Position numbers and translations under genes: made by a program. DNA of 64,000 bases from Escherichia coli (lineage in GTDB: Bacteria > Pseudomonadota > Gammaproteobacteria > Enterobacterales > Enterobacteriaceae): the NCBI RefSeq assembly GCF_044647545.1, contig NZ_CP172818.1. One strand, given 5' to 3'. Shown here piece by piece: positions 24,831-36,174 of this stretch; within the stretch, counting starts at the first letter, position 1, and each line of letters opens with the position of its first letter. Under the pieces are notes generated by a model, which saw only the letters and a list, made by a program, of their open reading frames with translations, did no database searches and was not told where the DNA came from.

Positions 24831-25448
24831 ATGATTAAGGTGTATGGCGTACCCGGATGGGGCTCTACAATCAGTGAGCTGATGCTAACACTGGCTGATA
24901 TTCCTTATCAGTTCTTTGATGTCAGTGGTTTTGACCACGAGGGAACTTCACGCGAGTTATTGAAAACCCTGAACCCGTTGTGTCAGATTCCGACACTGGC
25001 GCTGGAAAATGACGAGATTATGACGGAGACAGCGGCGATTGCATTGATGGTTCTCGATCGTCGCCCGGACCTTGCGCCACCGGTTGGGCGCGCCGAACGT
25101 CAGCAGTTTCAACGGCTATTGGTCTGGCTGGTTGCTAATGTCTATCCAACATTCACTTTCGCCGATTACCCTGAGCGTTGGGCTCCTGACGCACCTGAAC
25201 AGTTAAAGAAGAATGTTATTGAATATCGAAAATCGCTTTATATCTGGTTGAATTCGCAGCTCACTGCTGAACCTTATGCGTTTGGTGAGCAACTAACGCT
25301 GGTGGACTGTTATCTTTGCACTATGCGCACATGGGGGCCTGGGCATGAATGGTTTCAGGATAATGCCACGAATATCAGTGCGATTGCTGATGCTGTATGT
25401 CAGTTACCGAAATTACAAGAAGTATTAAAAAGGAATGAAATTATTTGA
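24831..25448 (+). CDS. yncG: Glutathione-S-transferase-like protein YncG
   Basis: 205-aa ORF. Confidence 0.85.
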   Translation: MIKVYGVPGWGSTISELMLTLADIPYQFFDVSGFDHEGTSRELLKTLNPLCQIPTLALENDEIMTETAAIALMVLDRRPDLAPPVGRAERQQFQRLLVWLVANVYPTFTFADYPERWAPDAPEQLKKNVIEYRKSLYIWLNSQLTAEPYAFGEQLTLVDCYLCTMRTWGPGHEWFQDNATNISAIADAVCQLPKLQEVLKRNEII

Positions 25449-25523
25449 GTGGGATACCAGAAGATTATGTTATTTATTATTCAGTAACTTTATCCACAAT
25501 GATGGGCGTAATTAATTAAATTC

Positions 25524-25736
25524 ATGTTATGTTTTTTAATTTATATCACTCTCCCTTTCATTCAGCTTGTCTATTTCATTTCCTCTGAAAAGAAACTAAC
25601 TATTCACATTGTGCAGATGTTTCAGTTGTTATCACAGGTATTCTATAATCTCAAAATGTTTTTAATGATGGATATGCTCGGAGTTGGAGATGCAATTAAT
25701 ATTAATACAAATAAAAATATCCGGCAGGTATGCTAA
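25524..25736 (+). CDS. yncH: Small hypothetical protein YncH (doubtful)
   Basis: 70-aa ORF in a very AT-rich stretch; no recognisable motif. Confidence 0.4.
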   Translation: MLCFLIYITLPFIQLVYFISSEKKLTIHIVQMFQLLSQVFYNLKMFLMMDMLGVGDAININTNKNIRQVC

Positions 25737-26474
25737 AAGGATAAATGGCGTTCTCTGTATTTATTCGCAATTATCTGTAGGACAAATATGGAGAGCTTGA
25801 TGAGTCAGAGCTAAAACAGCAATTGATTAATAAACATGTTGATTTATTCAAGAAAATGGATGTATTTTAAATATTGATTCTTAATATAACCTAATCAATA
25901 GATTATCACGTGAGAGCTGCACATTATTGGAGGGGCAGGGGAAAACACCATTTTGGGAACAATGCATCAGGTACTCTTACCACTGAAGCAAGATCATCCG
26001 GGCACCAGGTGGTGGTGCAGTGCTTTGGAAATGGTCCCCTCGGGGGAGTTGTCATTATTTTCTATGCTATTTGCTTATTATATTCATCAGGTGAATTTAA
26101 TAAATTCCTAATTTGAAATATCCACTATTAAGCCAGTGTTTAACGACGTTAAGATGGCAATGTGCAGATCATGTTATCAGGGTGGGGCGGTAGCGTATAT
26201 TCCTTATACAAACCATCATTCATTTCAATGATTGTTATTGAATTATTTATTGTTGTGAATAAAAAGACATTATGAATATTGGTTTGACTTTGCATATCAG
26301 GTTTTTTATTACTCGCTGTAATGTACGAGCCTGTCGTGAATAACGTCGAGAACCCATCCGTTGCGTTTGTGATTATTTTGTTGACTAAACAGACACCCGT
26401 TTCTCTGAAGTAAAATCCCAGACTAAATCATCACATAACCATGACATTTTTCTGATATTCCCCGGTAACGCCAG

Positions 26475-28108
26475 ATGTCGACTCGCTTATCCACCCTCAG
26501 CCATACCAGTGAAGGCCACCGCGTGTCGGTCCACTACGGCTATGACGATAAAGGCCGCCTGACCGGCGAACGCCAGACGGTGGAGAACCCGGAGACGGGG
26601 GAACTGCTGTGGCACCATGAGACCGGACATGCGTACAACGAACAGGGGCTGGCAAACCGCGTCACGCCGGACAGTCTGCCGCCGGTGGAGTGGCTGACCT
26701 ACGGCAGCGGCTATCTTGCGGGCATGAAGCTGGGCGGGACGCCGCTGCTGGAGTTCACGCGCGACCGCCTGCACCGTGAGACGGTGCGCAGCTTCGGCAG
26801 CATGGCAGGCAGTAATGCCGCATATAAACTGACCAGCACATACACCCCCGCAGGCCAGTTACAGAGCCAGCACCTGAACAGCCTGGTGTATGACCGTGAC
26901 TACGGGTGGAATGACAACGGCGACCTGGTGCGCATCAGCGGCCCGCGACAGACGCGGGAATACGGCTACAGCGCCACGGGCAGGCTGGAGAGTGTGCGCA
27001 CCCTCGCACCAGACCTGGACATCCGCATCCCGTATGCCACGGACCCGGCGGGCAACCGGCTGCCGGACCCGGAGCTGCACCCGGACAGTACACTCACAGT
27101 GTGGCCGGATAACCGCATCGCGGAGGATGCGCACTATGTCTACCGCCACGATGAATACGGCAGGCTGACGGAGAAGACGGACCGCATCCCGGCGGGTGTG
27201 ATACGGACGGACGACGAGCGGACCCACCACTACCACTACGACAGCCAGCACCGCCTGGTGTTCTACACGCGGATACAGCATGGCGAGCCACTGGTCGAGA
27301 GCCGCTACCTCTACGACCCGCTGGGACGGCGAATGGCAAAACGGGTCTGGCGGCGGGAGCGTGACCTGACGGGGTGGATGTCGCTGTCGCGTAAACCGGA
27401 GGTGACGTGGTATGGCTGGGACGGAGACAGGCTGACGACGGTGCAGACTGACACCACACGTATCCAGACGGTATACGAGCCGGGAAGCTTCACGCCGCTC
27501 ATCCGGGTCGAGACAGAGAACGGCGAGCGGGAAAAAGCGCAGCGGCGCAGCCTGGCAGAGACGCTCCAGCAGGAAGGGAGTGAGAACGGCCACGGCGTGG
27601 TGTTCCCGGCTGAACTGGTGCGGCTGCTGGACAGGCTGGAGGAAGAAATCCGGGCAGACCGCGTGAGCAGTGAAAGCCGGGCGTGGCTTGCGCAGTGCGG
27701 GCTGACGGTGGAGCAACTGGCCAGACAGGTGGAGCCGGAATACACACCGGCGCGAAAAGTTCATTTTTACCACTGCGACCACCGGGGCCTGCCGCTGGCG
27801 CTCATCAGCGAAGACGGCAATACGGCGTGGCGCGGGGAGTATGATGAATGGGGCAACCAGCTTAATGAGGAGAACCCGCATCACCTGCACCAGCCGTACC
27901 GTCTGCCAGGGCAGCAGTATGATAAGGGAGTCGGGCTGGTACTTATAACCGTCACCGGTACTACGATCCGTTGCAGGGGCGGTATATCACCCGGGACCCG
28001 ATTGGGTTGAGAGGTGGATATGGATATGTATCAGTATCCGTTGAATCCCATACAAGTGATAGACCCAATGGGGTTAGATGCGATTGAGAATATCATAATA
28101 TCAGGCTA
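26475..28108 (+). pseudogene. rhsE: Rhs element remnant (rhsE): C-terminal part of the Rhs core with two frameshifts and a 10-aa tip
   Basis: YD repeats ([24 protein letters not shown]). Near 27935 the conserved end [25 protein letters not shown] is in another frame; frame returns for [16 protein letters not shown] (PxxxxDPxGL) followed by only [10 protein letters not shown] before the stop. GC-rich core against AT-rich flanks. Confidence 0.85.
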
Positions 28109-29200
28109 ATTAATTTATGCCGTATCTGGTGTACCTGGATTGATTGCTGCAAACAGCATTACTAACAGTGCTTACCAGTTCGGTTATGATATGGATGCTA
28201 TTGTTGGCGGAAGCTCATAATGGGGCCGCCGATGCAATGAGACATATCGTCACTTGATGTGTCGAATGACTAAGACATTTGGATCAAACAATAGCTGACG
28301 TGATAGGAAAAATCATGAGGCGGCAGGGATAACAAGGTCAGCCAGCTAAAGAAAAGTAATCATGGATCTAAAAAATAACACTGTCGGTATTGCTTGTGGC
28401 GATTTTTGGCCAAATGTAGCGATGATGTATTGTAAAATATAACACTGGGAAAACTCTTCGGGTTAGATGGTATAAAAGCAGATAACTCCAATAAAAACAA
28501 AGCAAGGGAGTTTCAGACGCTTCAAATTATTAGAGGCAAACTTGTCATTTTTTTTAATTACCCTTTGTTTATTTGTTGTTTACAATCTTCTGGGTTTGAT
28601 AACAATTCAAATTCTTGATATTGTCATTTTATGGACATAAATACCTAAAGAGCGTTGAGATATCTTTCTGAAAAAAATATTATTTATAAAATAATTAATG
28701 ACCAAAAAATTAGTAGAGGGAATGGTCATTTTATAAGTATAATGGTTAATAATTACAGGACGCACTGTGGAGTGGTTGATAAACTTAATTTTTTCAATGA
28801 TATTCTTTATAGCGTGCGATTAAAAAACATTAAAGCAAACTTGCAGAATATGGAGTTCTGCGCTAAAAAATAATGCGTATTTTAGTGATAAAAACAAGAA
28901 GGCTAGTTATAAAATAATTAATTATGGAGAACTATCACGATGTTGATTATTATGATAACAATTTGAAAAATGAAGCTTTTTGACTGGATTGGTAAATGGT
29001 CATAATGAACAACACCAGAAAGTAGAAAAATATAAAATACATACAGAAGATACTAGAAGCAAGGGACGGGCAGGGCAATATTATGAAAATTGTGATGTAA
29101 AATCACGATTTTCATCTTGGCTTGAACGCTAGCAGGCTATTAAAATTTAACCTTTGGATAAATGGAAAAAGATAAAAAAGGACCAAGTGATATTTTAAGT
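28109..29200 (+). other. AT-rich region of decayed short ORFs downstream of the Rhs tip
   Basis: Fragments such as VSGVPGLIAANSITNSAYQFGYDMDAIVGGSS and the 72-aa ORF 28655..28873; nothing intact. Interpretation as toxin/immunity remnants is inference from Rhs locus architecture. Confidence 0.35.
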
Positions 29201-29204
29201 TTGC

Positions 29205-30135
29205 TTGATTATATTTAGCTATCTCTATATACGACAACAAGGAAGCTTAAACATAAATCTATCCGCTATTTTGTTTCTCACCGTATGTGAGAATTGCGAG
29301 GCCCATGAGTGGCAGGAAATTGAAGATTTTGGACATGAAAGACTTGAATGGCTAAAGAAATATGGTGATTTTGATAATGGGATTGCGGTCGATGACACCA
29401 TTGCACGCGTTGTGAGTAACATTGACAGTTTGGCCTTTGGAAGATGTTTATTGAATGGATGCAGGAGTGCCATGAAATCACTGATGGTGAAATTATAGCA
29501 ATAGATGGAAAGACCATAAGAGGCTCCTTTGATAAGGAAAGAAAAGGAGCAATCCATATGGTGAGTGCATTCTCAACCAAATGGTGTTGTACTCCGGCAG
29601 GCGAAACGGAAGCCAAAAGTAATGAGATTACAGCCATTCCACAGTTGCTTAACCTACTGTATTTAAAGAAAATTTTGATAACCATCGACGCTATGGGCTG
29701 TCAGAAAGATATCGCTTCGAAGATTAAAAGATAAAAAAGCAGATTATCTTCTGGCAGAAAAGGCAATCAGGGGAAATTACATCATGCATTCGAGGAAAAA
29801 TTTCCTGTAAATGTGTTTTCTAATTATAGGCGATTCGTTTAGTACGCAGGAGATAGTCATGGAAGAAAAGAAACACGTTTTCATATTGTAGTAACGTAAC
29901 GCCTGAACTTTTGTGATTTTGAATTCAATGGAAGGGATTAAAAAAGCTTTGTGTAGCATTGTCATTCAGGCAGAAGAAAGAAGATAAATCAGCAGAAGGT
30001 GTAAGCATCCGATACTATATTTCATCAAAGGATATGGATGCTAAAGAATTTGCACATGCTATCAGAGCGCACTGGCTGATCGAGCACAGTCTTCATTGGG
30101 TGTTAGATGTAAAAATGAATGAAGATGCCGCCGGA
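29205..30135 (+). pseudogene. yncI: H-repeat-associated (ISAs1-family) transposase remnant (yncI-like), multiply disrupted
   Basis: Fragments ([38 protein letters not shown]; IIAIDGKTIRGSFDKERKGAIHMVSAFS...; C-terminal [20 protein letters not shown]) parallel the adjacent ydcC copy but are broken by stops and frameshifts. Confidence 0.7.
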
Positions 30136-30397
30136 TAAGAAGAGGAAACGCAGCCTAAATAATATCTGGAATAAAGAAGATGGCACTGAATTTATTAAGA
30201 GATTGCAAAGACATTAAGGGTGAAGAGGAAAAGAAAGAAGGCTGCGTTAAACACAGGGAAAGATCATCAGAAGTTCACTTTTTGTACTAAATAATTCGCA
30301 TTTTATGTTTAAAAATTGAGATATTCCTCATTACCTGAAGCTGTTTTTTATTGCTTATACATGATCAAATACTCCTTACATAATTAAGGAGAACAAA

Positions 30398-31533
30398 ATG
30401 GAACTTAAAAAATTGATGGAACATATTTCTATTATCCCCGATTACAGACAAGCCTGGAAAGTGGAGCATAAATTATCGGACATTCTACTGTTGACTATTT
30501 GTGCCGTTATTTCTGGTGCAGAAGGCTGGGAAGATATAGAGGATTTTGGGGAAACACATCTCGATTTTTTGAAGCAATATGGTGATTTTGAAAATGGTAT
30601 TCCTGTTCACGATACCATTGCCAGAGTTGTATCCTGTATCAGTCCTGCAAAATTTCACGAGTGCTTTATTAACTGGATGCGTGACTGCCATTCTTCAGAT
30701 GATAAAGACGTTATTGCAATTGATGGAAAAACGCTCCGGCACTCTTATGACAAGAGTCGCCGCAGGGGAGCGATTCATGTCATTAGTGCGTTCTCAACAA
30801 TGCACAGTCTGGTCATCGGACAGATCAGGACGGATGAGAAATCTAATGAGATTACAGCTATCCCTGAACTTCTTTACATGTTGGACATTAAAGGAAAAAT
30901 CATCACAACTGATGCGATGGGTTGCCAGAAAGATATTGCAGAGAAGATACAAAAACAGGGAGGTGATTATTTATTCGCTGAAAATGAAACCAGGGGCGGC
31001 TAAATAAAGCCTTCGAGGAAAAATTTCCGCTGAAAGAATTAAATAATCCAGAGCATGACAGTTACGCAATGAGTGAAAAGAGTCACGGCAGAGAAGAAAT
31101 CCGTCTTCACATTGTTTGCGATGTCCCTGATGAACTTATTGATTTCACGTTTGAATGGAAAGGTCTGAAGAAATTATGCGTGGCAGTCTCCTTTCGGTCA
31201 ATAATAGCAGAACAAAAGAAAGAGCCAGAAATGACGGTCAGATATTATATCAGTTCTGCTGATTTAACCGCAGAGAAGTTCGCCACAGCAATCCGAAACC
31301 ACTGGCACGTGGAGAATAAGCTGCACTGGCGTCTGGACGTGGTAATGAATGAAGACGACTGCAAAATAAGAAGAGGAAATGCAGCAGAATTATTTTCAGG
31401 GATACGGCACATCGCTATTGATATTTTGACGAATGATAAGGTATTCAAGGCAGGGTTAAGACGTAAGATGCGAAAAGCAGTCATGGACAGAAACTATCTG
31501 GCGTCAGTCCTTGCGGGGAGCGGGCTTTCGTAA
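30398..31533 (+). pseudogene. ydcC: H-repeat-associated (ISAs1-family) transposase YdcC, split by a single frameshift near 30995
   Basis: ORFs 30398..31003 (201 aa) and 31069..31533 (154 aa) are the N- and C-halves; the joining segment [31 protein letters not shown] reads in a different frame. Confidence 0.8.
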
Positions 31534-31718
31534 TCTTTCCCTGGAGTGGCAAAGAACTGGTGGTGAATAATCCCGTTATTAGCAGACTTTTAACAATATG
31601 ATTAAGCTGCATCTTAAGCGTCTCCAGAATGGACTTTTATTGGGGGTATTTACGGATAAAAATTTTTGTGAGGGGAAAAATAAATATAATGGGCGTTAAT
31701 AAATTGGCAAGCCGGGAA

Positions 31719-31787
31719 TTTTTTTTTTTTTAATGGCATGTTGGCAAAAAATATATTCTGCAAGTTTTTTTTTTTGGCTTTTTTTTT
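31719..31787. repeat. Three homopolymeric T tracts (T13, T11, T9) within about 70 bp
   Basis: Read directly: ...gggaa t13 aatgg..., ...caag t11 ggc t9 aaaagg...; between the ydcC end and pptA. Confidence 0.9.
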
Positions 31788-31912
31788 AAAAGGGTGTAAA
31801 ACAAACCTGTACAAATTCAAGTAGGCATTATTGCCGTAAAAAAGCATCACCGGACACATAACATTCACAACGTGTGTTAATTTTACTGACATCTTTCAAA
31901 AGGAGCACAATC

Positions 31913-32140
31913 ATGCCGCACATAGACATTAAATGTTTTCCACGTGAACTGGACGAACAACAAAAAGCAGCACTTGCTGCAGATATTACCGACGTTATTA
32001 TTCGCCATCTGAACAGTAAAGACAGTTCGATAAGCATTGCTCTACAGCAGATTCAACCAGAATCATGGCAAGCTATCTGGGACGCCGAAATTGCGCCCCA
32101 AATGGAGACGCTGATAAAGAAACCTGGTTACAGCATGTAA
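31913..32140 (+). CDS. pptA: 4-oxalocrotonate-tautomerase-family protein PptA
   Basis: Track ORF 31874..32140; start at MPHIDIKCF gives 75 aa with the catalytic N-terminal Pro. Confidence 0.85.
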
Positions 32141-32143
32141 TGC

Positions 32144-32713
32144 TTAACCTGCCGTAACACGCTTGCCGCTGGTAACAAACGTGCCAGCGCCTAAATGATG
32201 CAACGTATTGAGCTTATCATCATCAAACTGCCAGCGGCCTTCGACAAATACCCGTGCGTCTGCCGCTGCTGATACCACTTCGCCAAACAGCGTGTCGTAT
32301 TTTTCTTGCGCAGAAGTCGCAGGTAGCAGGCGACACTCCATCCACGCCAGACATTTTTCCTCGACCAGCGGCAAACCAAGCACCGGACCTTTCACAACCG
32401 GAATACCATAGCAGTTAAACTTATCTTCATCACGCCCCGACACACTTCCCACCGCCCACGTCCAGTTAGTCGCCGCAACGCCTGGGATAACGATGCCAAA
32501 TTTACCGTTACGCTCAATCAACTCCCTGGTCCATGTCGATTTATCTACCACAATCGCCACGCGTGGCGGTTCAAACTCTACGGGCATAGACCAGGCTGCT
32601 GCCATAATGTTACGCCGCTGGGATTGCTCATCGAAACTGGTGATCATGACAGTTGGGCCATGATTTAACAGACGGCTGGCATGGTGTAATTCGACGGGAA
32701 TGAATTGGCTCAC
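32144..32713 (-). CDS. yddH: Flavin-reductase-like protein YddH
   Basis: 189-aa ORF. Confidence 0.88.
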   Translation of the reverse strand: MSQFIPVELHHASRLLNHGPTVMITSFDEQSQRRNIMAAAWSMPVEFEPPRVAIVVDKSTWTRELIERNGKFGIVIPGVAATNWTWAVGSVSGRDEDKFNCYGIPVVKGPVLGLPLVEEKCLAWMECRLLPATSAQEKYDTLFGEVVSAAADARVFVEGRWQFDDDKLNTLHHLGAGTFVTSGKRVTAG

Positions 32714-32887
32714 GATATCGCCTCGCTATGAAGGGTGTTTTAAAAGCGTAGCTCGTAACGCAATAAGTAACGAAATTAACGGGATTGGCGATTTGCGAAC
32801 GTGATGCATGTCCGCGATCGCACAAAATAGCCAGTGCGGCGTCTATTCCAGGTTATAAGTTGAGAAAACCACTAAGGGAAACGCCTG

Positions 32888-33733
32888 ATGACGCCCATTC
32901 TGAATCACTATTTTGCCCGTATTAACTGGTTGGGAGCTGCTGCGGCCAATATTGATACGCTGCGTGCATTGCACCTGAAACACAATTGCACCATTCCGTT
33001 TGAAAATCTCGACGTTTTGCTGCCGAGGGAAATACAGCTTGATGATCAATCGCTGGAAGAGAAACTGGTGATAGCCCGTCGTGGCGGTTACTGTTTTGAG
33101 CAGAATGGCGTGTTTGAGCGTGTGTTACGCGAGCTGGGGTTTAACGTTCGCAGCTTGTTAGGGCGCGTAGTGTTATCAAATCCGCCAGCATTACCGCCGC
33201 GCACCCATCGTTTGCTGTTGGTGGAACTGGAAGGGGAAAAATGGATTGCTGATGTCGGTTTCGGTGGGCAGACGCTAACCGCGCCGATTCGTTTAATGCC
33301 GGATATCATGCAAACCACGCCACACGGAGAGTATCGGTTGTTGCAAGAGGGTGATGATTGGGTGTTGCAGTTTAATCATCATCAGCACTGGCAGTCGATG
33401 TACCGTTTTGATCTCTGCGAGCAGCAACAAAGCGATTATGTGATGGGCAATTTCTGGTCGGCGCATTGGCCGCAGTCGCATTTTCGCCATCATTTGCTGA
33501 TGTGTCGCCATTTGCCGGACGGTGGCAAGCTGACACTGACCAATTTTCATTTTACCCATTATGAAAATGGGCACGCAGTTAAGCAGCGAAATCTACCAGA
33601 TGTGGCGTCGTTATATGCCGTGATGCAGGAACAGTTTGGTCTGGGCGTAGATGATGCGAAACATGGCTTTACTGTGGATGAGTTAGCGCTGGTGATGGCG
33701 GCGTTTGATACGCACCCGGAGGCGGGAAAATAA
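32888..33733 (+). CDS. nhoA: Arylamine N-acetyltransferase / N-hydroxyarylamine O-acetyltransferase NhoA
   Basis: 281 aa; catalytic Cys context RRGGYCFEQN. Confidence 0.93.
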   Translation: MTPILNHYFARINWLGAAAANIDTLRALHLKHNCTIPFENLDVLLPREIQLDDQSLEEKLVIARRGGYCFEQNGVFERVLRELGFNVRSLLGRVVLSNPPALPPRTHRLLLVELEGEKWIADVGFGGQTLTAPIRLMPDIMQTTPHGEYRLLQEGDDWVLQFNHHQHWQSMYRFDLCEQQQSDYVMGNFWSAHWPQSHFRHHLLMCRHLPDGGKLTLTNFHFTHYENGHAVKQRNLPDVASLYAVMQEQFGLGVDDAKHGFTVDELALVMAAFDTHPEAGK

Positions 33734-33744
33734 TTTATGTCAGG

Positions 33745-33825
33745 TTGCCGGATGTGGCGTAAATGCCTAATCCGGCATACATTAGTCCGGTTGTAGGCCT
33801 GATAAGCGAAGCGCATCAGGCAACG
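33745..33825. repeat. REP/BIME cluster between nhoA and yddE
   Basis: tgccggatgtggcgtaaatgcctaatccggc ... gtaggcctgataagcgaagcgcatcaggca, a classic REP palindrome pair. Confidence 0.75.
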
Positions 33826-33828
33826 GTT

Positions 33829-34722
33829 TCAGAGTTCAATTGCCCATTCGGCATGAAACAAAATCACCGCCGTGCCAGAAATGGTGACTTTCTCCGGTTG
33901 GTTATCACGAATTGTCACCGTCACTTCAATCACGCCTTCACGCCCTAATGCGCGCCCCTGATGGCCTTTAACACGCAACACGTTGCCATCGTGTGGCAAT
34001 ACGTTGTGATGTACTAACCATGCACCCATCGGGCCATTGGCATTGCCAGTCACCGGATCTTCCACAATACCAATCGCAGGCGAGAACATGCGACCATCGG
34101 TTTCGTTTTTGCCTGGGCGGATCTGGAACGGGAAGAAACCATTGCAGCCAATCTGTTTGCTGATTGTGGTCAGCGCAGCAAGGTCAGGCGAAAGGGCGTC
34201 GATATCCACTTCCGGCTTCAGTGGAATCATCACTTTTGAGTGTCCTGTGGTAGCCACCTGGATTGGCAAGCCTTGCAAAATATCGTCTTCAGTGAGATGA
34301 AGCGCGTTGATAATCGCTGCACGTGTTTCACCTTTCAGCGGTGGCTCAAAGCCTGGAGTACCTTGTTCCAGCGAAATACGATAATCATCATTTTGCTTTT
34401 CGATAGTCACACGATGTTTTCCTGCCAGCGACGTTTGCCAGACGGTGCAATTTCCTAAACCTAACACCTTTGCACGTACATAGTGCGCAGCTACTGTCGC
34501 GTGACCACAAATCGGAACTTCAACCGTTGGCGTAAAGTAGCGGATGCGCACATCGCTGTCGTCGCTGTGCAGCAGAAAAGCAGTTTCCGAATGACCTAAC
34601 TCGCGGGCGATAAGCTGCATTTGCGCTTCGCTAAGATTATCGGCGGGGAAAACAACACCGGCAGAATTGCCGCGAAACGGTTGAGAGGTAAAAGCATCGA
34701 CGTGGTAAACCTGCGGTTTCAT
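33829..34722 (-). CDS. yddE: PhzF-family isomerase-like protein YddE
   Basis: 297-aa ORF. Confidence 0.9.
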   Translation of the reverse strand: MKPQVYHVDAFTSQPFRGNSAGVVFPADNLSEAQMQLIARELGHSETAFLLHSDDSDVRIRYFTPTVEVPICGHATVAAHYVRAKVLGLGNCTVWQTSLAGKHRVTIEKQNDDYRISLEQGTPGFEPPLKGETRAAIINALHLTEDDILQGLPIQVATTGHSKVMIPLKPEVDIDALSPDLAALTTISKQIGCNGFFPFQIRPGKNETDGRMFSPAIGIVEDPVTGNANGPMGAWLVHHNVLPHDGNVLRVKGHQGRALGREGVIEVTVTIRDNQPEKVTISGTAVILFHAEWAIEL

Positions 34723-34801
34723 TAATGTTCTCCTGTGGCTGGAGAACTATCATAGCCTGCAAGTGGCCGGAGAGCGAAGAGCTATCCGGCCCGCGAGAGA
34801 A

Positions 34802-35482
34802 TTAACGCCGCGAACGCACAATCTGATACCGACGAGTAAAGTACTCAAACGGCGCGCTCCAGACATGCACCAGTCGGGTGAACGGGAAGAGCAGAAAGAT
34901 GGTCATTCCAAGCACCAGATGAACGCGGAATATAAAGGCGACACCATCAAGATGCGTAGATGCACCGCCCTGGAAAGTGACAATGCTTTGCGCCCAGCCC
35001 ACCAGCTTCATCATTTCACTGCCGTCCGGATGTTGTGCTGAAAAAGGAATGGTGGTTAACCCAAGAATGCACTGAATTAACAAAATAGCGAGGATCAGGA
35101 TATCCGCACCAGAAGACGTCGCCCTGATACGCGGATTTGTTAAACGACGCACCAGTAGCCCCGCACCGCCAATCAGCGTCAATACCCCGCATATTCCGCC
35201 GAGGATCATCGCCATTAGTTGTTTCGCTGCCACTGGCAAAAACCACGCGTACATCCAGTGCGGCGTTAACATGCCGAACAGGTGCCCGAAGAAAATCCCC
35301 AAAATGCCGATATGGAACAGATTCGACCACAGCACCATACCACGTTTATCCAGCATCTGGCTGGAGGCGGCGCGCCAGGTATACTGCCCGTAATCGTAGC
35401 GCAGCCAGCTTCCAAGGATAAAAACCGTGCCACACAAGTACGGGTAGATATCGTAAAAAAAGACGTTCAGATACTGAATCAT
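34802..35482 (-). CDS. narV: Nitrate reductase Z gamma subunit (cytochrome b) NarV
   Basis: 226-aa hydrophobic ORF; last gene of narZYWV. Confidence 0.92.
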
Positions 35483-36174
35483 TTCCCACCTCCCGCACTG
35501 ATGTCGACATACTGCGGCGCGACATCCTGGCTAAAGCGTCGCTGATATTGATTAAGCGGCGAGCTGTCACACGCCGTGGCGTTATCTTCAATAAACTTCA
35601 CCTGTTCTTCTTCCCACACCGCATCCAGCGCCTGGCGGGTGTCGTCACGCTCTTCACTGCGAATCTGTTTTGTGACGCTGTCACTTGACAGAGGGCTTCC
35701 TGCCAGTTGCAACAGGGTGTCAAATAACGCGTACCACGGTGCCTCGCGTTGTTTTAAGCGTCCGCCAAGCAGGGCGAGGATCGGCGCAACGTTGAGCAAG
35801 CCTTCTTTCGCCTGATCGTCCGGCAGTACGCTTAAGTACTCCAGATACAGCGGCAGATAATCGGGCAGTTCTCGACAATCCAACTGCAGACCGACCTTTT
35901 CATACTCCGCCAGCAGGTCCACCATTGCCTGGCCGCGATCGCGGGACTCGGCATGAACATGTTCGAACAGCAGCAGCGATGTGGTACGTCCACGGTCAAA
36001 CACTTCGCACCATTCGGCCTGTTTATCCAGCAGCGGCGCGTTAAGCAGGTTGCGGGTAAAATCCGTAAGCATCGGTGCGTCGCGGCGGATCAACGCCAGC
36101 GCGTCCTCCTTACATTCCCACAACAGCTCGTCCGGATACTCCATCAACAGGCCGATCACTTTGAGGATCTGCAT
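35479..36174 (-). CDS. narW: Nitrate reductase Z assembly chaperone NarW
   Basis: 231-aa ORF overlapping narV by 4 nt. Confidence 0.92.

Follow-up and report, generated by a model that had tools for sequence, protein, structure and literature searches.

Four genes for small-molecule enzymes, pptA (also known as ydcE), yddH, nhoA and yddE, lie side by side in the stretch of Escherichia coli DNA analysed here (64,000 nucleotides, hereinafter the window), and the question raised by this locus is whether their neighbourhood reflects joint work in one pathway or only a common genomic history. The earlier note on this DNA, proceeding from the idea that each family acts on aromatic or heterocyclic substrates, supposed a shared role in the handling of aromatic amines or xenobiotics, although not within a single operon. 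As a description of the locus it was accurate. The identities of all four genes agree with Pfam and NCBIfam profiles and with RefSeq annotation of near-identical E. coli genomes, where the same names are used unchanged, and the genes do fit within 2.9 kb on alternating strands with coordinates exact to the base: according to ORF calls they span 2810 bp from the A of the pptA ATG (31913) to the first base of the minus-strand start codon of yddE (34722). Since the strands alternate, the locus consists of four transcription units, in agreement with the note's denial of a common operon, and the REP cluster noticed between nhoA and yddE is composed of two opposed REP elements.

The locus corresponds to b1461–b1464 of E. 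coli K-12 MG1655, situated 5′ of narZYWV, and the window is collinear with positions 1,516,000–1,548,000 of that chromosome. The gene set, its order, strands and flanks are identical in K-12, while nucleotide identity is 94–95% across the four genes versus 97–99% in the flanks, so that the window carries a different allele. Two further differences concern pptA, which here encodes 75 aa and is separated from yddH by 3 bp, whereas in K-12 it encodes 77 aa and overlaps yddH by 4 bp; and here an additional AT-rich segment of about 280 bp with long T runs (31560–31840), which is not in K-12, precedes the conserved pptA leader. The genes patD, mnaT, yncG and curA, the latter for curcumin reductase, are also found on the K-12 stretch. 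A GTDB locus labelled E. coli (L003) was rejected as a stand-in for K-12 because it has only 85–93% identity to the window, and K-12 was compared directly instead. The four-gene block as a whole was registered in 5353 of 5426 complete E. coli genomes (~99%).

Subunits of the 4-oxalocrotonate-tautomerase-like superfamily are short (about 60–77 aa), have a beta-alpha-beta structure and use a catalytic Pro-1 that becomes N-terminal after Met removal. PptA (31913–32140, plus strand) conforms to this type with its 75 residues and the N-terminus MPHIDIK, in which Pro follows the initiator Met. It matches PF01361 (E=1e-16, 61 bits), the NCBIfam PptA equivalog (159 bits, cut-off 83) and the structures 1GYJ, 1GYX and 1GYY deposited as “YdcE” (E=4e-45). 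Enol-keto tautomerase activity of YdcE on phenylpyruvate is attributed to Almrud et al. 2002, as cited in PMC5818174. The commonest partner of pptA is yncG, a GST gene that in 23 of 51 loci lies directly upstream and has the same orientation, the gap being 34–68 bp in 19 of 21 loci measured by ORF calls. In the window yncG (24831–25445, plus strand; 80% identity by tblastn, GST_N domains, K-12 annotation) is parted from pptA by ~6.4 kb of rhsE/ISAs1 material, and in loci of other species pptA is displaced by 1–10 kb. Judged by its profiles and these neighbours, PptA is a Pro-1 tautomerase most often partnered by a GST. Within the species, pptA is intact in 4083 of 5426 complete genomes and not intact in ~25% of them, and the difference between 75% for intact pptA and ~99% for the whole block should be read bearing in mind that this gene makes up only 8% of the block. 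In ST131 yncG and pptA are deleted together, while yddH, nhoA and yddE remain.

YddH (32144–32713, minus strand, 189 aa) carries a Flavin_Reduct domain at residues 19–153 (PF01613, 77.5 bits). Its closest structure is 3HMZ, an uncharacterised FMN-binding protein (E=2e-36), followed by flavoredoxins, and its score with the HsaB equivalog is 21.6 bits against a cut-off of 230, so that YddH is not of the HsaB type. No monooxygenase was found among its neighbours in the window or among recurrent annotated families in the best 80 of 327 NAT loci described below. By these data YddH is an FMN-binding split-barrel protein without an oxygenase partner nearby. Contexts of its distant homologues are diverse, and no NAT, tautomerase or PhzF gene adjoins the five that were sampled outside Enterobacteriaceae, which is a thin sample drawn from sequences residing mostly on short metagenomic contigs. 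Two transcriptome papers list yddH without pptA, nhoA or yddE.

NhoA (32888–33733, plus strand), a 281-aa arylamine N-acetyltransferase/N-hydroxyarylamine O-acetyltransferase, is covered by PF00797 from residue 21 to 256 (E=2e-88), exceeds the equivalog cut-off of 493 with 628 bits and matches the Salmonella NAT structure 1E2T (E=2e-149). Cys69, His107 and Asp122 are invariant in the alignment of 18 orthologues, i.e. the protein is a full-length NAT with a complete triad, and on these grounds an acetyl-CoA-dependent Cys-His-Asp arylamine acetyltransferase. The divergent region of 174 bp that separates it from yddH (32714–32887) is conserved across genera only in its nhoA-proximal part, according to the alignment of 19 genera or species. 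This part contains a putative promoter module (32820–32858, plus strand), recognised by its cross-species conservation, in which a GCACAAA box is placed exactly 34 nt 5′ of a TATAA(G) -10 element, itself located 34 nt before the nhoA ATG; the predicted transcription start is at about 32866 (plus strand). The GCAC-TATAA spacing of 34 nt is fixed in 61 of 79 species loci, and the module remains at nhoA even where an ABC transporter is inserted upstream. In the 64-kb window it has a single match, with 0.08 expected by chance, and the same scan found it at none of pptA, yddH and yddE. Taken together, these observations suggest that nhoA has its own positionally fixed promoter. A marbox for MarA/SoxS/Rob at the GCAC box was considered by eye and dropped because its second half varies between genera; if present, it would have linked nhoA to the stress regulon of nfsA and nfsB. 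General predictors were of little help here: sigma-70 promoters and intrinsic terminators searched for between 31500 and 35000 were no more numerous than in shuffled sequence, and none of either kind was usefully placed.

PhzF-family isomerases have a DapF-like double-domain fold and a catalytic Glu (E45 in PhzF) accompanied by H74 and D208. YddE (33829–34722, minus strand, 297 aa) belongs to this family by PF02567 (E=8e-94, residues 8–290) and by the equivalog score of 553 bits (cut-off 386), and its E46, H74 and D222 align with E45, H74 and D208 of PhzF (1T6K); the structures 1QY9, 1QYA and 1SDJ are those of E. coli YddE itself. Neither the region of the window nor the K-12 annotation contains phzE/phzD-type genes, that is, there is no phz operon, and the neighbours of yddE are nhoA and narV, the last gene of narZYWV (34802–35482, minus strand) and the stable one of the two. 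In all 19 loci having both genes among the best 80 of 327 NAT loci, yddE follows narV at a distance of 80–156 bp, and it does so even where insertions part it from nhoA (L015, L016, L018). The narV-yddE spacer (34723–34801, minus strand) contains a hairpin just after narV (34791–34765), the sequence TATGAT (34754–34749) 27 nt 5′ of the yddE ATG, and a second hairpin, TTCTCC/GGAGAA (34746–34728), covering the yddE Shine-Dalgarno sequence; the fold as a whole has -31.4 kcal/mol (z -3.5). Across 14 sequences from Escherichia and Citrobacter neither TATGAT nor the second hairpin varies, whereas the spacer otherwise diverges. Probably TATGAT serves as yddE's own -10 element, with a predicted transcription start near 34742 (minus strand), and the hairpin would lie over its ribosome-binding site. 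This candidate promoter region differs from the nhoA module. In Citrobacter REP-like palindromes are also present in the narV-yddE spacer. In other genomes yddE orthologues stand alone at three unrelated loci; Trabulsiella, for instance, has an unlinked yddE, and its nhoA loci keep yddH without yddE. A boric-acid screen with a hit on yddE was set aside: the phenotype is mild, and the “nohA” it names is not nhoA but another gene.

How far the neighbourhood extends beyond E. coli was estimated from species-level loci of Enterobacteriaceae with NhoA as the anchor. They are the best 80 of 327 NAT loci, and all counts out of 80 refer to them. The compact four-gene form is present in six of them, belonging to Escherichia and two Citrobacter. 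Within 10 kb of nhoA, yddH is found in 72 of these best 80 loci (adjacent in 44, split off in 28), always on the same side and in divergent orientation, pptA in 52, abutting yddH in only eight, and NarV in 65; yddE is present in 21 and absent from 59. In 18 of the 21 yddE-bearing loci the convergent nhoA/yddE spacer is 42–114 bp long. Since the value for NarV is similar to that for yddH, neighbour retention matches background synteny, and contiguity exceeding this background was not detected across genera in the best 80 of 327 loci. Joint presence and absence of the four genes was likewise not observed in this set (yddE 21, pptA 52, yddH 72). Every junction takes unrelated insertions: a 3.4-kb ABC transporter is often situated between yddH and nhoA, and the cargo includes an ABC importer, an alkyl sulfatase, a GGDEF protein, an EF-G paralogue, an amidohydrolase and a 2OG oxygenase. 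Salmonella diarizonae has nhoA without yddH, and one Escherichia species retains nhoA alone of the four.

Based on these data one can assume, with a probability of about 0.72, that the locus is ordinary annotated backbone composed of four separate transcription units, which are neighbours by vertical descent and not parts of one pathway. The ancestral order was likely yncG>pptA> <yddH nhoA> <narVWYZ, with yddE limited to the Escherichia/Citrobacter/Salmonella branch just downstream of narV. The junctions between transcription units would have repeatedly gained unrelated cargo or lost genes, so that Escherichia happens to hold the most compact version, and each enzyme would act on its own substrates. 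Two observations count against such independence. In 72 of the best 80 of 327 loci yddH and nhoA have kept their side and their divergent orientation, and the joint persistence of a GST with a tautomerase, a flavoprotein and a NAT resembles a detoxification theme. Even with separate descent the four genes may share a trans-acting regulator with differing binding sites, or weak co-regulation.

The shared role proposed in the earlier note corresponds to a dispersed, co-regulated xenobiotic or aromatic-amine module of four separately transcribed enzymes with related substrates. It is in line with the fact that all four families are small-molecule enzymes, that NhoA acetylates arylamines arising from nitro drugs (PMC13171619), that the GST gene yncG and the curcumin reductase gene curA are nearby, and that yddH and nhoA are kept together in 72 of the best 80 species. 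The rest of the data speak otherwise, and the proposal found no support in them. The compact form is confined to six of these 80 species, and the genes are lost independently: yddE from 59 loci, pptA from ~25% of E. coli genomes, yddH from Salmonella diarizonae. The nhoA promoter motif does not recur at the other three genes, yddE orthologues stand alone elsewhere, and distant YddH homologues occupy unrelated contexts without NAT, tautomerase or PhzF genes. The one upstream step that is known leads away from the locus, as acetylation of nitroreduced tolcapone by NhoA depends on the nitroreductase NfsB, whose gene is unlinked (PMC13171619). Finally, the transcripts of pptA and yddH overlap (PMC12288877), so that expression of either gene would be expected to hamper, not to assist, that of the other. 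We therefore consider such a module improbable.

Similarly improbable is a narrower version, in which only yddH and nhoA form a functional pair with a bidirectional control region, YddH reducing nitro, nitroso or hydroxylamino arenes or supplying reduced flavin, and NhoA acetylating the products. In its favour, the two genes are divergent neighbours in 44 of the best 80 of 327 loci and keep their placement and orientation towards each other in 72, and in Mycobacterium tuberculosis the NAT gene shares an operon with that of the flavin reductase HsaB (PMC2764864). Yet in 28 species the two genes are separated by the ABC transporter or by others, and the putative promoter then stays at nhoA. Conservation in the spacer is limited to its nhoA-proximal half. 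The pair is also dissolved in Salmonella diarizonae and in one Escherichia species, where nhoA exists without yddH, and the five distant YddH homologues sampled have no NAT neighbours. YddH itself is flavoredoxin-like rather than HsaB-like, and in mycobacteria the hsa steroid genes account for the link, which fast growers have lost (PMC2764864).

It is also improbable that yddE acts as an effective fifth gene of the narZYWV operon, expressed by read-through and serving the physiology of nitrate reductase Z. Such an arrangement would account for its strand and for its constant distance of 80–156 bp from narV in 19 of 19 loci (from the best 80 of 327), and the terminator scan revealed no T-tract terminator between the two genes. 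On the other hand, the invariant TATGAT lies in front of yddE, narV is followed by a stable hairpin or by REP elements, and in read-through RNA the conserved hairpin would mask the ribosome-binding site of yddE. Furthermore, Citrobacter sp. NCU1 (L021) and Salmonella diarizonae (L043) have retained yddE but not nar, while most narZYWV-bearing species among these 80 loci have no yddE.

Hardly probable, too, is an ancient detoxification island of yncG-pptA, yddH and nhoA under one regulator reading the nhoA GCAC box, broken up in the E. coli lineage by the rhs/ISAs1 insertion. The operon-like GST-tautomerase pair and the divergent flavoprotein-NAT pair would both be controlled by this regulator; if the island were real, the shared xenobiotic role would hold for an extended set including yncG and excluding yddE.

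Least probable, and very much so, is an nhoA-yddE pair in which YddE isomerises a DHHA-like dihydro-aromatic amino acid that then aromatises to an aminophenol for acetylation by NhoA, since, despite retained PhzF catalytic residues, the 42–114 bp convergent spacer in 18 of 21 yddE-bearing loci (best 80 of 327) and the loss of 2-acetamidophenol upon deletion of phzF or Nat in Pseudomonas chlororaphis (PMC7236291), 59 of the best 80 NhoA loci have no yddE, after insertions yddE follows narV and not nhoA, elsewhere it is a singleton (including Trabulsiella, whose nhoA loci lack it), phzE/phzD-type genes for DHHA are absent here, and PhzF, TrpE and NAT combined in vitro did not turn DHHA into the acetamide (PMC7236291).

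Thus, independent neighbours remain the preferred reading. Four adjacent enzyme genes are unremarkable, and “aromatic or heterocyclic substrates” is probably too wide a label to set them apart. The genes, the structures (PptA/YdcE, YddE and the Salmonella NhoA orthologue) and the chemistry of NhoA are already published, and a literature search on the four gene names together found no study treating them jointly. Adjacency at this locus should not transfer function, for instance by annotating YddH or YddE as enzymes of arylamine metabolism. For work on these orphan enzymes it may be more useful that PptA has the GST gene yncG as its usual partner, that nhoA has a positionally fixed putative promoter box, and that yddE, a portable singleton, has a leader hairpin covering its ribosome-binding site.

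Known systems resemble parts of this locus to a different extent. In the hsaA-hsaD-hsaC-hsaB-nat cluster of M. tuberculosis the NAT gene adjoins a gene of the Flavin_Reduct family, as here (PMC2764864). There the genes form a single-strand operon under KstR, in which HsaB works for the HsaA oxygenase, and fast-growing mycobacteria have lost the linkage (PMC2764864), whereas the genes of the window are divergent, have no oxygenase and encode a YddH scoring below the HsaB cut-off. In the 2-acetamidophenol route of P. chlororaphis a PhzF-family isomerase and an arylamine N-acetyltransferase serve one product (PMC7236291). In Pseudomonas, PhzF is encoded within the phzABCDEFG operon making DHHA, while the E. 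coli locus is devoid of such genes and yddE is unlinked to nhoA in most species. The tail-to-tail arrangement of pptA and yddH, with 3 bp between them and no terminator found there by the scan of 31500–35000, is that of convergent excludons, and the pair is listed as such in the excludome of MG1655, for which presence in 50% or more of 58 RNA-seq samples was required (PMC12288877); the abutting form, however, occurs in only eight of the best 80 of 327 loci. The convergent nhoA and yddE have a familiar arrangement as well. REP elements are extragenic imperfect palindromes of ~30–35 nt, often paired in inverted orientation as BIMEs. REP element 1 (33747–33776, plus strand) and REP element 2 (33793–33821, minus strand) both match REP-type patterns, built from REP consensus sequences, with 0 mismatches (0 matches expected by chance) and fold as hairpins (z -3.7 and -4.7). 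A permissive Rfam search gave only a sub-threshold match, to the REP-derived naRNA4. Such a BIME-like pair would stabilise or insulate the two converging 3′ ends, and two opposed imperfect palindromes between convergent genes are nothing unusual for enterobacterial chromosomes.

The best-supported reading of this region is that pptA, yddH, nhoA and yddE form four independent transcription units, which are neighbours by vertical descent on an insertion-prone backbone. All four ORFs were found by ORF calling and in the sequence itself exactly where the earlier note had placed them: pptA at 31913–32140 (plus strand), yddH at 32144–32713 (minus), nhoA at 32888–33733 (plus) and yddE at 33829–34722 (minus), with narV, narW, narY and narZ following on the minus strand at higher coordinates. 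Pfam and NCBIfam agree with all families, the scores being of equivalog level for PptA, NhoA and YddE. Structural matches in the PDB are E. coli YdcE/PptA (1GYJ), Salmonella NhoA (1E2T) and E. coli YddE (1QY9); YddH is closest to an uncharacterised FMN-binding protein (3HMZ), with flavoredoxins next. PptA has Pro directly after the initiator Met, catalytic residues C69, H107 and D122 of NhoA are invariant across an alignment of 18 orthologues, and E46, H74 and D222 of YddE align with E45, H74 and D208 of PhzF. The REP cluster reported between nhoA and yddE is present as two palindromes of opposite orientation (33747–33776 and 33793–33821) in a 95-bp spacer.

Conservation of this arrangement was estimated with NhoA as an anchor (the same 18-orthologue alignment, A1) in a scan of one genome per GTDB species. 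The best 80 of 327 NAT loci, all from Enterobacteriaceae with NhoA identity of 71–100%, were kept with flanks of up to 10 kb per side; window proteins were placed by tblastn, ORFs were called and clustered, and arrangements were counted. Among these best 80 of 327 loci yddH was registered within 10 kb of nhoA in 72, always upstream and on the opposite strand; the two genes are next to each other in 44 loci and separated in 28. The pptA gene was within the same distance in 52 loci and in every case lay on the plus strand upstream of nhoA, at −0.4 to −10 kb, the nearest position being that in Salmonella diarizonae, which lacks yddH; it abuts yddH in 8 of the 80. The yddE gene is present in 21 loci, belonging to Escherichia, Citrobacter and Salmonella only, and in 23 loci without it nhoA is directly convergent with narV. 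The compact four-gene form was found in six of the 80 (four Escherichia species and two Citrobacter). Since NarV is retained within 10 kb of nhoA in 65 of the same 80, the neighbours are kept no more strongly than gene order in this chromosomal segment is overall.

Junctions between the genes carry insertions that are unrelated cargo. In Klebsiella, Kluyvera, Raoultella and Lelliottia, yddH is parted from nhoA by an ABC importer of 3.4 kb; other insertions encode an alkyl sulfatase, a MASE5-GGDEF protein, an EF-G paralogue, an amidohydrolase or a 2OG oxygenase and, judged by eye from the sequences, LacI, enolase-superfamily and MFS proteins. The importer (L059 6106–10001, L076, L039, L058 and L081 among the related-genome loci) comprises an ATPase, an SBP_bac_6 binding protein and a double-domain permease, sits between yddH and the putative nhoA promoter, and has a leader with Fur-box-like AATGAAAATGTAATCAATA and a conserved CACTAAGTCCCAAAGAGGATAACA stretch.

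The genes are also lost and relocated independently. Salmonella diarizonae has the order pptA>nhoA><yddE, without yddH and without the nar operon, one Escherichia species retains nhoA alone, and Trabulsiella nhoA loci have yddH and lack yddE. In E. coli, pptA is intact in 4083 of 5426 genomes, and ST131 has lost yncG and pptA beside an ISEc1 copy, keeping yddH, nhoA and yddE. Stand-alone yddE orthologues (70–78% identity; L092 6001–6894, L094 6001–6897 and L096 6001–6894) occupy three unrelated sites in Trabulsiella, Cedecea and Moellerella, which suggests that yddE moves as a one-gene unit. Five distant YddH homologues (43–58% identity), a thin sample on short contigs, had no NAT, tautomerase or PhzF gene adjoining them; their neighbours included LysR/glyoxalase/RidA, GST/molybdopterin enzyme, thioesterase/MarR or SRAP genes, and one stood on a 978-bp contig without an informative neighbour. 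Apparent fusions in the protein collection, NarV-domain+PhzF (P0354, 385 aa), PhzF+NAT (P0389, 335 aa) and NAT+PF13378 (P0117, 353 aa), are probably products of faulty gene calling or assembly at this locus.

That the four genes are not one operon, as the earlier note held, agrees with their separate control regions. Between genera the yddH/nhoA spacer is conserved only in its nhoA-proximal part, where 61 of 79 Enterobacteriaceae loci share a GCAC(A/T)3 box at exactly 34 nt 5′ of TATAA (GCAC(A/T)3-N27-TATAA, with TATAA 33–35 nt before the nhoA ATG). In loci with the ABC importer this module remains immediately 5′ of nhoA, parted from yddH. In the 64-kb window it was found at 32820–32858, with no second match, and is therefore not common to pptA, yddH and yddE. 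No recognisable −35 hexamer was seen in it, and the box may be regarded, from its conservation, as a candidate promoter element, which is a minor new point.

The stable neighbour of yddE is narV, not nhoA. Their gap measures 80–156 bp in all 19 loci having both (among the best 80 of 327), even in three loci with insertions of 1.5–3.4 kb between yddE and nhoA. Within it, TATGAT and a TTCTCC-N-GGAGAA hairpin over the Shine-Dalgarno sequence (34728–34754, minus strand) are invariant in Escherichia and Citrobacter, the rest being divergent or bearing REP-like palindromes. The TATGAT region would serve as a yddE-specific promoter and the hairpin could silence yddE translation on read-through narZYWV RNA, so that this leader, another minor new point, may provide translational control or insulation from read-through.

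The tail-to-tail genes pptA and yddH have 3 bp between their stop codons in the window and a 4-bp overlap in K-12, and the terminator scan detected no terminator between them. This pair is listed in the published MG1655 “excludome” (PMC12288877), whose members are convergent genes with overlapping transcripts; interference, not co-expression, is predicted from this. The operon-like pair in the region, if any, is yncG-pptA rather than a pair inside the four, also a minor new point: in other genera the usual partner of pptA is GST-like yncG, which precedes it directly on the same strand in 23 of 51 loci with pptA (among the best 80 of 327; for instance L012, L025, L053 and L065), with a gap of 34–68 bp in 19 of 21 loci measured by ORF calls. 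In the window yncG (24831–25445) is followed by ~6.4 kb of rhsE/ISAs1 remnants before pptA. This E. coli rhsE/H-repeat (ISAs1) block, in the interval 25446–31912, contains frameshifted ydcC (30398–31533). Between the ISAs1/ydcC end and a 90-bp conserved pptA leader lie ~280 bp of AT-rich DNA with three long T homopolymers (31560–31840). The latter segment is absent from K-12, occurs at no less than 80% coverage in 524 genomes and in some abuts an alkyl/aryl-sulfatase gene; a 4-bp length difference within it in otherwise identical FDAARGOS_497 suggests variable homopolymer length.

Allelic divergence between E. coli strains has a local maximum over pptA-narW, one more minor new point. Divergence from K-12 rises at 31900–36000 and is highest at 35000–35500 (narV): identity is 94–95% over pptA-yddE, 84% in narV and 93% in narW, against 97–99% in the flanks. 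Only 65 of 5423 records have this haplotype at no less than 99% identity, and cryptic-clade Escherichia sp. E1V33 has a NarV with 99% identity to the one encoded here. The divergence may reflect import by recombination, old haplotypes, or conversion with narI. Three public records appear taxonomically mislabelled: a “Citrobacter sp.” MAG (L002) that matches the present E. coli locus at 100% identity, and a “Chryseobacterium sp.” assembly and a “Delftia acidovorans” MAG (L041, L044) with typical enterobacterial nhoA-narV loci.

Neither synteny nor co-occurrence supports the suggested common role of the four enzymes in aromatic amine or xenobiotic handling, nor do shared motifs or the published biochemistry, though it is not formally refuted. 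Escherichia would carry the most compact state by chance. The literature search found no study treating all four E. coli genes jointly, and two transcriptome papers list yddH without pptA, nhoA and yddE. NhoA acetylates the amine made by tolcapone nitroreduction, the nitroreductase being NfsB, whose gene lies at another chromosomal site (PMC13171619); p-aminobenzoate is also reported as a substrate of NhoA, although nhoA deletion did not stop that acetylation in the cited study (PMC12093962). NAT gene contexts vary even within mycobacteria, where the hsaADCB-nat operon exists in slow growers only (PMC2764864), and the PhzF+NAT route to 2-acetamidophenol in Pseudomonas chlororaphis depends on the phz operon (PMC7236291). 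The gene group itself is already known: the stretch 31913–34722 is 100% identical to FDAARGOS_497 and 95.4% to K-12-type strains, 5353 of 5426 complete E. coli genomes have the block, and the surrounding DNA runs collinear with K-12 MG1655 1,516,000–1,548,000, where the four genes correspond to the annotated locus b1461–b1464.
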